From the sequence record PQ657772.1: a stretch of 64,000 nt of DNA. One strand, written 5' to 3'. The position numbers and the translations under genes were made by a program. The notes below the pieces were generated by a model. That model searched no databases, was not told the DNA's origin, and saw only the letters and a program-made list of their open reading frames with translations. This document shows positions 32,841 to 35,650 of this stretch, in pieces; within the stretch, counting starts at the first letter, position 1, and the number at the start of each line of letters is the position of its first letter. The stretch comes from Escherichia phage EC.P1.

Positions 32841-32895
32841 GTATGATATTATTTATAGAACTGAAAAATTTGATTATTAAAATGCTTTAAAATGT
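32841..32895 (-). repeat. conserved ~55-nt late-promoter cassette, copy 1
   Basis: Near-identical to 35598..35650; contains TATAAATA at 32850..32857. Confidence 0.5.
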
Positions 32896-34011
32896 TTATT
32901 TTTTATTGATACCAGAAAGAACATCGAGTTCTTTTAGGAATGCCATATCGTCAGCGGTCATTTCTTCGCTTTCAACAATAGCCTGACGGTTGCCAGTGAT
33001 TACTTTACCTTCTGCAAGAGTTCTCTTAGCGGAAGACTGAACTGCTTGACGAGTGGTAGCAGATTCATTTACTTTAGTACCGTTAAGTACTGACTTATGG
33101 TACTTGCTGAAATCGTCTTTAAGCTTTTCTGTAGGAGAAGTAGCTAGAAGGGATTCCATAATTTGTTTCTGTTGTGTAGTTAGTGGCTTAACTAGTTCAG
33201 ACATAATCGCATTACGAGCTTGTGAATCTTCCATAATACGTAGTTTGGTTTTAGCAGCTTTAACTTCACTTACAGTTTCATTTAGTTCTTGTTTAACTTG
33301 TGCAATTTCGTCTTCTTTAGACTTAATTGATTCAGTTAGGGAACGTAGTAGTGAATTCTCATTAAATTGTTTGACATTAAACTCTTGAGCAAACGCTTCA
33401 AAGATTTTACGACCAAACATATTTTGTTTTGCTTCAACAAGATCTTCTTTCAAAGCGTATAGGTTTTTCTGAGTAGTTTCTGCAATGTATTTAGCAGCAC
33501 TTTCAGAGGTACGTTTGATGAAGTTGTTACGTGCTTCAGCAATTTGACGGGAGCCTTCAGCTAGTAGTTTAACGCGAGTTTCAACTAGTTGACGTTTCTC
33601 GATGTGGAATTCTTTTAGCTCTTCTGCTAGGATACCGTTAGAGAAATTAACGAATTTACCCATGCATTCTTGAAGATGCTTACGTTCTTTACGCATTTGT
33701 TTAACTTCTTCAGCCAAAACAGAGTTAGAAAACGCAGAGAAATTACTTAGGGTTTTACGGAGAGTTACACGATCTTCTACAAGACGTTTTTTCTCTTCAT
33801 ATACTGCACCCATTTCTTCAGCGATAACTTGAGTAACCATAGTATTTAGACCTTCGGTTAGCTCGGACAAATCTTGTTTGTAGCGGCCTTTCATTTCTTC
33901 ACGCATTTCTGCGGCAAGTGTGTTTTTTTCTTCATTCCATGCTTCCTGAATTAGCTGTTTTGCCTCATCAGAAAGAGATGATTCTTTTAGAAGCTTTTCT
34001 AATTTAGACAT
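32896..34011 (-). CDS. prohead scaffold protein (gp22-like)
   Basis: Coiled-coil, charged, 371 aa; between protease and capsid genes as in T4; AAAGGAGAG RBS. Confidence 0.55.
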   Translation of the reverse strand: MSKLEKLLKESSLSDEAKQLIQEAWNEEKNTLAAEMREEMKGRYKQDLSELTEGLNTMVTQVIAEEMGAVYEEKKRLVEDRVTLRKTLSNFSAFSNSVLAEEVKQMRKERKHLQECMGKFVNFSNGILAEELKEFHIEKRQLVETRVKLLAEGSRQIAEARNNFIKRTSESAAKYIAETTQKNLYALKEDLVEAKQNMFGRKIFEAFAQEFNVKQFNENSLLRSLTESIKSKEDEIAQVKQELNETVSEVKAAKTKLRIMEDSQARNAIMSELVKPLTTQQKQIMESLLATSPTEKLKDDFSKYHKSVLNGTKVNESATTRQAVQSSAKRTLAEGKVITGNRQAIVESEEMTADDMAFLKELDVLSGINKK

Positions 34012-34077
34012 TCGTTCTCTCCTTTAAGTACTGAAATATCTGTACTTCAACATACAAATATTTATATTTTTAAAATG

Positions 34078-34698
34078 TTAACCTTTTAATTTCTTGAAAA
34101 AATCGTAAATTTCAGAATCTACATTATTTACTGTTTTAGATTCTGTGATTTTTTTAGGACTATTACAAGGTGATCCGTACTTACTCATCAGAGATTCAAA
34201 AACCGCAGTAGGGTATGCCTCTGGAGCACTAGGTTGAGCAACAATATCAATTGTGATAATTTCAAAATCAGAAACTATTCCATTGTAATCCACGTTACCG
34301 GAACCACGAGAACTTACACCAAGTTTCACACCAGCTTCTAGCATTTTACGAATATTAGTACCATGAGCAGTATCAAGTAGTTTGATTTCTGCCATGCCGT
34401 TAGCACCTTCCATCCAGACCTTAGTAATCATTGCTGCTACACGGTCAAGGTTAATTGTTAGTGTTTCAGGGTGGTCACATTCAACTAGAATACTTTCACC
34501 TTTAGCCAAACGTTGAGCCATATTATTAACAGCTTTAGTAATTTCGGCTAAAGGGTAAATTCTCTCATTTAAATTTCTTTGATCGGCTTGAATAGCAATA
34601 CCACGAAGATAGCAATCACGCCCACCAAGTCCATTATCACGATGTTCCAAAACAACTTTAGAATCATTGAATGAAGACCATTCACGAATCATACTCAT
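34078..34698 (-). CDS. prohead core protease (gp21-like)
   Basis: Synteny with T4 gene 21; 206 aa; AAGGAGAT RBS. Confidence 0.55.
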   Translation of the reverse strand: MSMIREWSSFNDSKVVLEHRDNGLGGRDCYLRGIAIQADQRNLNERIYPLAEITKAVNNMAQRLAKGESILVECDHPETLTINLDRVAAMITKVWMEGANGMAEIKLLDTAHGTNIRKMLEAGVKLGVSSRGSGNVDYNGIVSDFEIITIDIVAQPSAPEAYPTAVFESLMSKYGSPCNSPKKITESKTVNNVDSEIYDFFKKLKG

Positions 34699-34729
34699 AA
34701 TGATCTCCTTTCCTTTTCTTTATTTAGTG

Positions 34730-35563
34730 TTAGATTTTTGGTTGTGATTTTGGTAGTGGAGAACGAGATTTAGAAGCGGTATTTTTTGGCTTCGCAACAT
34801 CTTTCATTTCGCCACGAGCATTTTTACCTAGGTCTTCATCAGTGTGAGACATAGCATCTTCGTTTTCAAAATCATAATCTACTTGTTTTTCGGAAGCTTT
34901 AGCGAATTTCACTGGAGCAACACCTTGAACTGGAGATTTAGCTTCTGGAGCAACTGGAGACTTGGTATTAACGCCAGCTTTTTCTTTCTTATCAACCGCA
35001 GCAACTTGCTTAAGTTTGAAAGACTCACCAACTTTCTCATCACCGAATTGTACATCAGCAAATTCGTCTTCAGATTCTTCACCATCAGCACCGAATTCTT
35101 CTTCCGCACCAACTTCAACTTCTTCGTCGTCAGAACCTAGGTCAACTTCATCACCACCGATTTCGTCAAACATTTGTTGTAGGCCACGGAAAGCATCTTG
35201 AATAGATTCCCATTGGTCTTCGGAAGGAACTTCTGCACCAACTTCTGCTTCAGCGTCAACTTCTTCGCCATCAGCATCAGCAGAGAATTCAACTTCTTCT
35301 TCTGCACTTTCATCTTCTTCACCTAGGGTGTATTCGATTTCAGCATTTAGACCAGCGTCTGGTTGAACATCAAAGTCTTCGTCAAGTTTTTCTTCGTCTT
35401 TGACTTCAACTTCACATTCTTCTTCGTCCATGCTTTCTTCTAGTTCTTTATTGATTTCTTGAGCTTGCTCAACAAAGTACTTACGCATTTTTTTATCAGC
35501 AACATCTTGTTCGCCGTTTGCAAACGCTTCAATTGCTTCTTGTAGTAGTTTTAAATTCGCCAT
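34730..35563 (-). CDS. highly acidic prohead core / internal head protein
   Basis: Asp/Glu-rich repetitive sequence; position matches T4 gp68/internal protein region. Confidence 0.5.
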   Translation of the reverse strand: MANLKLLQEAIEAFANGEQDVADKKMRKYFVEQAQEINKELEESMDEEECEVEVKDEEKLDEDFDVQPDAGLNAEIEYTLGEEDESAEEEVEFSADADGEEVDAEAEVGAEVPSEDQWESIQDAFRGLQQMFDEIGGDEVDLGSDDEEVEVGAEEEFGADGEESEDEFADVQFGDEKVGESFKLKQVAAVDKKEKAGVNTKSPVAPEAKSPVQGVAPVKFAKASEKQVDYDFENEDAMSHTDEDLGKNARGEMKDVAKPKNTASKSRSPLPKSQPKI

Positions 35564-35597
35564 TATATCCTCCATAGATATATTACATTCATATAAA

Positions 35598-35650
35598 GTA
35601 TGATATTATTTAGTACTGAAAAATTTCGCCATTTTTAAAAGCTTTAAAAA
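35598..35650 (-). repeat. conserved ~55-nt late-promoter cassette, copy 2
   Basis: Near-identical to 32841..32895; contains CTAAATAA. Confidence 0.5.

Follow-up and report, generated by a model that had tools for sequence, protein, structure and literature searches.

Why should two genes in the head module of one phage, those for the major capsid protein and for an acidic virion structural protein, be preceded by almost the same stretch of non-coding DNA? We addressed this question in a stretch of 64,000 nucleotides (nt) from Escherichia phage EC.P1 (PQ657772.1), which is referred to below as the window. A previous sequence-only reading had described two nearly identical segments, one before each of these genes, and had interpreted them as an extended late promoter that shares a core with the lysozyme promoter and contains a palindrome that may act as an UP-like element or protein-binding site. 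Our analysis indicates that the segments are probably paralogous late-promoter and leader regions with a T4-type box, a promoter subclass marked by the motif CATAC, gene conversion between the copies and two RNA-type hairpins. Paralogy with gene conversion, the CATAC subclass and the two hairpins better explain what had been taken for an extended promoter with an UP element.

Both segments are present as described, and their likeness is longer than had been claimed. On the coding (minus) strand the capsid-gene stretch reads ACATTTTAAAGCATTTTAATAATCAAATTTTTCAGTTCTATAAATAATATCATACTGAAAAACG... and the acidic-gene stretch ...CACTTTTTAAAGCTTTTAAAAATGGCGAAATTTTTCAGTACTAAATAATATCATACTTTATATG..., and the likeness spans ∼90-100 nt, which is nearly the whole of each intergenic region from just 3' of the upstream stop codon to the Shine-Dalgarno sequence. 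The local alignment score of the two cassettes (45) exceeded that of every other pair among the 561 formed from upstream regions of the window (mean 9.9, standard deviation 3.4), and it was reached in none of 2000 shuffles, for which the maximum was 28. As a sister genome we used TH47, a complete genome of 352 kb that is 98% identical to the window. The genome-wide motif scan suggested in the earlier reading was run on TH47 as a two-copy profile; this revealed only two significant places (E-values 4e-23 and 3e-18), namely those before the two head genes, and the third-best match was the lysozyme-gene site with an E-value of 0.37. Given the top score among the 561 pairs, the shuffling result and the two copies in TH47, chance and dispersed repetition can both be dismissed as the source of the likeness. 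The two stretches are paralogous regulatory regions, each consisting of a promoter and a 5' leader directly before a head gene. The cassette was not reported by a gap-free repeat finder because the copies differ by indels, and an exact-pattern scan of IMG/VR for TTCAGTWCT-N0-2-AAATAATA yielded just scattered chance matches in unrelated contigs.

The phylogenetic setting of the window made further comparisons possible. Positions 31000-37000 are 97-99% identical at the DNA level to the Escherichia jumbo phages WPEC5, BF17, fEgEco12 and CMSTMSU and ∼90% identical to G17, phAPEC6 and 121Q-type phages (Asteriusvirus, RaK2-like group), and as judged from this identity the source phage is a jumbo coliphage of the RaK2/121Q type (Asteriusvirus). 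Comparisons were made with Yersinia and Erwinia phages of the genus Eneladusvirus, with L010 and L011, which belong to a third, metagenomic lineage, and with a Klebsiella phage.

That late promoters precede the two head genes, as had been proposed, was borne out, but the extension does not hold as a general motif since other late promoters share only a T-rich upstream and an A-rich downstream sequence. Specifically, the consensus of 38 TH47 sites in promoter position consisted of a T-rich stretch at −13 to −8 relative to the box, A-rich or A/T sequence downstream and nothing else. No sigma-70-type match was found on the coding strand of the head module, and no TTGACA/TATAAT pair at the cassettes. 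The box TATAAATA is rare, with 6 copies in the window. The heptamer ATAAATA occurs 22 times there on both strands together; 16 of these copies are intergenic, and all 16 are located at most 100 nt upstream of a gene start on the same strand. When overlaps with gene ends are counted, 19 of the 22 copies have this placement, in a window of which only 5% is intergenic. The genes downstream include those for capsid, scaffold, portal-side, tail fibre, baseplate and lysozyme proteins.

In TH47, ATAAATA is present in 58 copies versus ∼182 expected, 38 of which are in promoter position before same-strand starts. Comparison with all single variants showed that this avoidance (ratio 0.32) extends to CTAAATA (0.35), GTAAATA (0.32) and TTAAATA (0.46), with ratios near 1.0 for the other 18 variants. 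Moreover, 9 of 33 CTAAATA and 11 of 38 GTAAATA copies were found in promoter position (27-29%), versus 4-5% for control heptamers. Since only the variants at position 1 are depleted like ATAAATA, the functional late core is TAAATA and the preceding position is free. This means that the ACTAAATA box of the acidic gene is a legitimate late promoter. What the sequence-only reading had seen as a deletion of TA is a valid variant instead, CTAAATA being both avoided and placed at promoters.

The promoter part of the cassette is known in kind, because an ATAAATA late consensus was predicted earlier for the related phages CBB and GAP32 (PMC5259590) and the late consensus of Aeromonas phage Aeh1, which the acidic-gene box ACTAAATA equals, is an (a/g)C variant of the box (PMC2988020). 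The predicted CBB and GAP32 promoters agree with ours in clade, motif and placement before structural genes; the published work covers the motif, and not a two-copy cassette, a CATAC subclass, C/G-TAAATA variants or hairpins (PMC5259590). As in T4-type late promoters, there is an 8-bp −10-like box without a −35 element, an A/T-rich downstream segment, a position directly before structural genes and a gp55-like sigma factor encoded by the phage. The differences are that the avoidance here points to a 6-bp core, TAAATA, and that a T-run at about −13 to −8 is common. T4 late promoters are read by gp55 together with gp33 and the gp45 sliding clamp. The gp55-like protein encoded in the window has 279 amino acids; the annotation of fEgEco12 lists its counterpart as a sigma factor and places a clamp at the equivalent of 22922-23653.

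In three lineages, both head genes carry TAAATAA-N3-CATAC. This pattern (TAAATAA-N3-CATAC or TAAATA-N4-CATAC) was found only 3 times in the 352 kb of TH47, where 0.64 occurrences are expected, and exactly twice in each related head module examined, always before these two genes. Because the general late consensus shows only T-rich upstream and A-rich downstream sequence, CATAC defines a promoter subclass rather than an extension of the general promoter. When the box is numbered as the T4 late box, −13 to −6 (PMC2988020), the A of CATAC is the predicted transcript start, which would result in leaders of 39 nt for the capsid gene and 38 nt for the acidic gene. Start-site data for this phage clade were not found in the literature, and the RNA-seq paper on PA5oct gives only sigma-70-like motifs.

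We next turn to the sequence upstream of the boxes. The palindrome noted earlier, TTTTAAAGCTTTTAAAA, is a near-palindrome in the acidic copy only, the capsid copy not being palindromic. An UP element, the site for the alpha C-terminal domain (alpha-CTD), is an A/T-rich block at about −59 to −38 that acts as double-stranded DNA. The block in question, at about −49 to −31, is the upper part of a hairpin that is flanked by an A-tract and a U-tract and that folds in 12 of 12 relatives with compensatory changes. Folding energies were −7.9 kcal/mol in the window (z −2.0) and −12 to −20 kcal/mol in the relatives (z −3.5 to −7.3). The basal stem varies while its pairing is kept (TCGC/GCGA, TACY/GGTA, TGCC/GGTA, TTCC/GGAA), and in Kaldavass an inner A-U pair has become G-C. 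Several of the changes affect one side only and go through a G-U pair on the sense strand, which suggests that the hairpin acts as RNA. Since the MAFFT alignments placed the arms out of register in some rows, pairs were counted per sequence with RNAfold. The capsid copy has kept a TTTTAAAGC.TTTTAA box (32877-32892) without the G+C stem, and the box is absent from the capsid region of Eneladusvirus. With a compensated hairpin in the acidic copy, a capsid copy lacking the stem and no box in the Eneladusvirus capsid region, the proposed UP-like element or protein site is unsupported.

The U-tract directly abuts the hairpin stem in G17, and abutting U-tracts are seen in relatives. The acidic hairpin is built like an intrinsic terminator and stands just ahead of a late promoter, and termination at this site is predicted. 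In this respect it resembles the PeSL/PmSL terminator-promoter cassettes (early and middle promoter stem-loops) of T4-like phages, which combine a short conserved stem-loop and a promoter in a module that is repeated in the genome and can recombine (PMC2839356, PMC4122927). PeSLs contain early (or middle) sigma-70-type promoters, are present in many copies and flank variable genes in hyperplastic regions (PMC2839356, PMC4122927), whereas the promoter here is late-type and has only two significant copies in 352 kb, flanking core head genes.

The two copies are not equally alike throughout the group. Within the Asteriusvirus genome the cassettes score 45 against each other, which is higher than the score of 36 between orthologs of this genus and Eneladusvirus, and the capsid and acidic paralogs of Eneladusvirus score only 23. 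At 35619-35630 the acidic copy of the window lineage reads GCGAAATTTTTCAGT, versus GCGATTTTATTCAGT in G17 and Salmonella phage SD-2. The acidic copy of the window lineage differs from that of G17 at 3 places, and 3 of 3 differences shift it toward the capsid copy; the changes at 35619-35630 displace the U-tract from the hairpin stem. On the strength of these scores and capsid-ward changes, we infer that the near identity over a tract of ∼35-45 nt reflects gene conversion between the copies.

A second hairpin spans the capsid promoter itself. Its arms reach 9 bp, as do only 0.28% of flank pairs taken from different promoters among the 38 late promoters (empirical p ∼0.003). The corresponding arms in relatives are TTTTCTGT/ACAGAAAA, TTTGT/ACAAA and TTTTTCAGT/ATTGAAAAA, which amounts to two compensatory changes and one G-U-compatible change: the core pairing shifts from CAGT/ACTG to CTGT/ACAG and TTGT/ACAA, and the G-U-compatible variant occurs in the Klebsiella phage. 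The box-spanning stem was part of the minimum-free-energy fold in 10 of 10 lineages (z −1.6 to −3.3). Transcripts from the capsid promoter would carry the 3' arm alone, and only RNA that reads through from the late promoters at 35956, 35607, 34721 and 34059 could fold this hairpin. Its role may lie in processing, 3'-end protection or pausing.

Other late boxes were also observed in the loops of inverted repeats, at ∼1290-1345 and ∼41880-41930 of the window (AGACCT...AGGTCT followed by a T-run, and TAATTCTT...AAGAATTA). The clearest other looped late promoter is on the minus strand of TH47, within a 16-bp terminator-type stem (AAAAAACTCCAAGATT...AATCTTGGAGTTTTTT). Around late promoters, long repeats were commoner than in flank pairs from different promoters. 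At 22890-22921 (minus strand), TATAAATA is followed at once by a G+C hairpin, GGGGAAC...GTTCCCC, with a T-run; RNA made from this box would begin within the 5' arm and would thus escape the terminator.

Taken together, these features suggest how the cassettes could work. Host RNA polymerase core with the gp55-like sigma factor would read both late promoters and start at the A of CATAC, giving 38-39-nt leaders with strong ribosome-binding sites. The shared subclass would provide matched, high late expression of two abundant head proteins, and gene conversion would keep the cassettes alike in this lineage. The terminator-like hairpin of the acidic copy, of which the capsid copy would hold only a remnant, is expected to end or damp transcripts arriving from the portal side, and the capsid hairpin (TTTTTCAGT...ACTGAAAAA) would fold only in RNAs that read through from upstream promoters.

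An alternative would be that the conserved sequence round the box (TTTTTCAGT...ACTGAAAAA, CATAC and the A/T block) is the site of a DNA-binding protein, such as an activator, a repressor or an UP-like alpha contact, that tunes the two promoters. The arms are indeed symmetric about the box (about −24 to −16 and +3 to +11), conservation of CATAC in three lineages is confined to these two promoters, and the abundant palindrome TTCAGTACTGAA discussed below consists of the halves TTCAGT and ACTGAA. There is also a precedent in T4, where DsbA binds A/T-rich sites overlapping two late promoters (PMC2988020); like those sites, the sequence here is A/T-rich, overlaps particular late promoters and could modulate them, but unlike at the DsbA sites the covariation favours base-pairing. 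Eneladusvirus has CTGT/ACAG arms while its genome-wide motif is still AGTACT, which argues that the arms follow base-pairing and not a fixed half-site. Likewise, the Klebsiella phage variant and the one-sided changes in the acidic hairpin keep pairing via G-U on the sense strand only. The acidic copy of this phage has no 3' arm, the arm centres are ∼27 bp apart and so are not on the same helix face, and T4-type late promoters require no upstream element (PMC2988020). We consider a protein site quite unlikely. Even more improbable is that the capsid hairpin functions like those in the leaders of T4 genes e, soc, 49 and I-TevI, in which an RNA hairpin encloses a late promoter and hides the Shine-Dalgarno sequence or AUG (PMC3014915), so that read-through RNA would conceal the ribosome-binding site and only transcripts from the internal promoter would be translated. 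The capsid promoter does lie within a hairpin, its promoter-proximal transcripts lack the 5' strand as in the T4 precedent (PMC3014915), and the minimum-free-energy fold of the window pairs the upstream UUUAAAG box with a CUUUAAG that overlaps the Shine-Dalgarno sequence. Unlike in T4, however, 16 nt separate the end of the conserved stem from the Shine-Dalgarno sequence downstream (32812-32817). Sequestration of the latter was rejected because neither Eneladusvirus nor the L010 lineage retains the outer pairing, and the fold of the whole region is not significant (z −0.9). The upstream promoters of the module are all late, so there is no obvious early transcript to silence.

It is also conceivable, though in our judgement unlikely, that everything beyond the TAAATA box arose neutrally, through a recent duplication or gene conversion in A/T-rich DNA, and that the hairpins and CATAC are functionless. 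The far higher paralog score in Asteriusvirus (45) than in Eneladusvirus (23) would fit this, as would the low thermodynamic significance of the hairpins in this phage and the complementarity that a T-run/A-run consensus creates by itself. Neutrality is difficult to reconcile with a CATAC whose distance is fixed at both genes across three lineages that share only ∼73% identity in coding DNA, with an acidic hairpin that pairs through at least 4 different basal-stem sequences, and with a box-spanning capsid stem seen in all 10 lineages with two compensatory changes. The interpretation as promoter and leader regions with two RNA-type hairpins nevertheless has several observations to contend with. 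At −6.7 kcal/mol and with many A-U pairs the capsid hairpin is weak, RNAalifold returned no consensus structure for the alignment of capsid upstream regions, and some complementarity of the arms arises from the T-rich-upstream and A-rich-downstream habit of late promoters. The acidic hairpin of the window is the weakest of its set, with AA between stem and U-tract; it was not flagged by simple terminator scans and was not annotated by ARNOLD in G17. The gp55-like protein and the putative clamp both lacked a Pfam match and a match to a solved structure in a PDB sequence search, which for the former is a difference from T4 gp55. Promoter use and start sites, finally, are argued from sequence logic. 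On balance, paralogous late-promoter regions with RNA-type hairpins remain the probable explanation, and the cassette is an ordinary kind of element with some unusual hairpin details.

The core thought to be shared with the lysozyme promoter requires separate consideration. The sequence TTTCAGTACTATAAATAATA is present at that site (52593-52612), but it does not represent a shared functional core, since its TTTCAGTAC portion is unconserved in other genera and belongs to an abundant motif. In other genera, conservation at the lysozyme gene is limited to the upstream ATAAATA (52586-52592), a box that shares bases with the stop codon of the baseplate hub gene. The site reads TTTTAGTAC in G17 and GGCGACTAAATAA in Munch, and it has no second box in Yen9-04. 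Because only the upstream box is conserved, and because just 1 of the 58 ATAAATA boxes of TH47 has AGTACT directly upstream, the shared core is best seen as a lineage-specific coincidence of a promoter box and an abundant motif. The late boxes before the lysozyme-domain gene are in tandem, the second being 18 nt from the ATG, an arrangement that recalls the pair of late promoters preceding T4 gene e.

The abundant motif is the palindrome AGTACT, and its excess is a more surprising side finding than the cassette itself. The most over-represented words of the window were AGTACT (136 copies), CAGTACTG (29) and TCAGTACTGA (10). Coding DNA of the window contains 126 copies of AGTACT versus 34.6 ± 4.8 after synonymous-codon shuffling (3.6-fold), and Ser-Thr is written AGT-ACT in 78 of 129 cases versus 23.5 expected. 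TH47 has 917 copies, and 20 of the best form, the 12-mer TTCAGTACTGAA; examples of the TTCAGTACTGAA/AGTACT palindrome in the window are found at 39404-39415 and 62526-62537. In a 50-kb sample of E. coli there were 3 copies, the density in the phage being ∼40 times higher. The excess is common to Asterius-, Eneladus- and Alcyoneusvirus and absent in related Pseudomonas and Agrobacterium phages. The motif shows no strand bias, and its sites turn over between genera while the density is kept.

Several origins of this excess were rejected. A repair-driven origin of the very-short-patch (VSP) type does not fit because one-mismatch neighbours are not depleted, and an origin at the level of RNA or codon usage does not fit because the motif has no preference for sense or antisense, occurs in all three frames and remains in excess against synonymous shuffles. 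Nor is AGTACT a general late-promoter element, as apart from the 1 in 58 boxes mentioned above it is found only at two AGTACTAAATA sites. Nothing relevant on AGTACT or CAGTACTG in phages was found in the literature. There may be some likeness to LexA or TrpR half-sites, with a spacing that misfits LexA. In TH47, ∼15 early sigma-70-like promoters contain AGTACT in a constant place, with the form TTGACA-N9/10-AGTACTG-TATAAT, and they often have another AGTACT immediately ahead of the −35 element; none of these promoters is present in the window. These promoters are located at ∼88-106 kb and 128-164 kb, a region of small genes with 6-7 AGTACT per kb. Other 6-bp palindromes containing G+C are nearly all absent from coding DNA of the window (CTGCAG 0 versus 22 expected, CAGCTG 0 versus 20, GGTACC 0 versus 15, ACCGGT 0 versus 10, CCATGG 0 versus 8.5), which is strong restriction-site avoidance. 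One might speculate that the TTTCAGTAC(T) by the promoter boxes is a copy of a selected, genome-wide double-stranded palindrome AGTACT that is read by a putative dimeric factor, either a marker of phage DNA or a transcription regulator, and that this would link the factor to late expression at head and lysozyme promoters; we regard this idea as distinctly doubtful.

The genes of the head module are all on the minus strand, in the order portal, small gene, acidic protein, S77 protease, scaffold-like protein and capsid (Table 1). A search of Rfam with 31500-36100 gave nothing relevant. Putative middle promoters of the TGnTATAAT type (extended −10) were observed at 14736-14908, 23654-23757 and 46469-46599, before the gp32-like, clamp-like and gp55-like genes, and fit the second promoter class of phage CBB (PMC5259590). 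The large terminase is in separate pieces on the minus strand (16246-17583 and 17862-18548, with a gap of 278 nt) and corresponds to three coding sequences in fEgEco12; the split region 16246-18548 may contain an intron or intervening element or involve a frameshift. On the 3' side of the capsid gene (29897-31548, minus strand) we observed a T5orf172/GIY-YIG-type gene (29897-30205) and a Cys-rich open reading frame of 309 amino acids (30619-31548). As part of this region, 31000-31600, is missing from most close relatives, 29897-31548 is probably a mobile or homing-type insertion.

Table 1. Coordinates of the cassettes, their elements and the genes discussed in the text.
Feature	Position	Strand	Basis or remark
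Capsid-gene regulatory cassette, whole intergenic region between scaffold-like and capsid genes	32806..32895	−	Gene map, paralogy with 35564-35663
Acidic head-protein gene regulatory cassette, whole intergenic region	35564..35663	−	Gene map, paralogy
Late promoter box TATAAATA (core TAAATA), capsid gene	32850..32857	−	
Late promoter box variant CTAAATA (ACTAAATA, 35607-35614), acidic gene	35607..35613	−	Avoidance and promoter-position counts
TATAAATA before scaffold-like gene	34059..34066	−	
CTAAATA, other head-module late promoter	34721-34727		
ATAAATA, other head-module late promoter	35956-35962		
Conserved start region ATCATACT with CATAC, capsid gene	32840..32847	−	Predicted start A 32844, 6 nt after box
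Start region ATCATACT, acidic gene	35597..35604	−	Predicted start A 35601
5' arm TTTTTCAGT of promoter-spanning hairpin	32860..32868	−	9-bp perfect inverted repeat
3' arm ACTGAAAAA of promoter-spanning hairpin	32834..32842	−	Within predicted leader
Terminator-like hairpin TCGC-AC-TTTTTAAA-GCT-TTTAAAAA-TG-GCGA, A-run before, T-run after	35626..35656	−	Folding and covariation
T-run: U-tract after acidic hairpin, also T-rich upstream flank of late promoter	35619..35623	−	
TTTTAAAGCATTTTAA box, capsid copy: degenerate hairpin top without G+C basal stem	32877..32892	−	Alignment; absent in Eneladusvirus capsid upstream region
Shine-Dalgarno AAGGAG, capsid gene	32812..32817	−	ATG 32803-32805
Shine-Dalgarno GGAGG, acidic gene	35569..35573	−	ATG 35561-35563
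AGTACT copy inside TTTCAGTACT	35612..35617	−	Instance of genome-wide over-represented palindrome
Region before lysozyme-domain gene	52586..52609	+	ATAAATA 52586-52592 (conserved across genera), TTTCAGTAC 52593-52601 (lineage-specific), TATAAATA 52602-52609
Portal gene	35965-37701	−	
75-amino-acid gene	35664-35891	−	
Acidic virion structural protein gene	34730-35563	−	Protein match phrog_15696 (virion structural protein)
S77 prohead protease gene	34078-34698	−	
Scaffold-like protein gene	32896-34011	−	
Major capsid protein gene	31630-32805	−	
Strong terminator 3' of capsid gene	31588-31607		
Phage lysozyme-domain gene	52627-53115	+	
gp55-like late sigma factor gene	45629-46468	−	phrog_12791 (E 9e-153), phrog_234 "late sigma transcription factor" (E 1e-16)

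What do these results mean for this group of phages? The AGTACT data expose the question why ∼900 copies of one palindrome are kept while almost every other 6-bp palindrome containing G+C has been removed. For late transcription, the counts provide annotation rules for the RaK2/121Q group, namely a TAAATA core before which C, G or T is tolerated and which is strongly counter-selected elsewhere in the genome, and CATAC marks a promoter subclass of its own for the pair of head genes that are most strongly coupled. The two cassettes would furthermore be an example of concerted evolution of regulatory DNA inside a phage genome. Finally, they offer a testable example of late promoters that are built into RNA hairpins, either beside a terminator-like stem or inside a loop.

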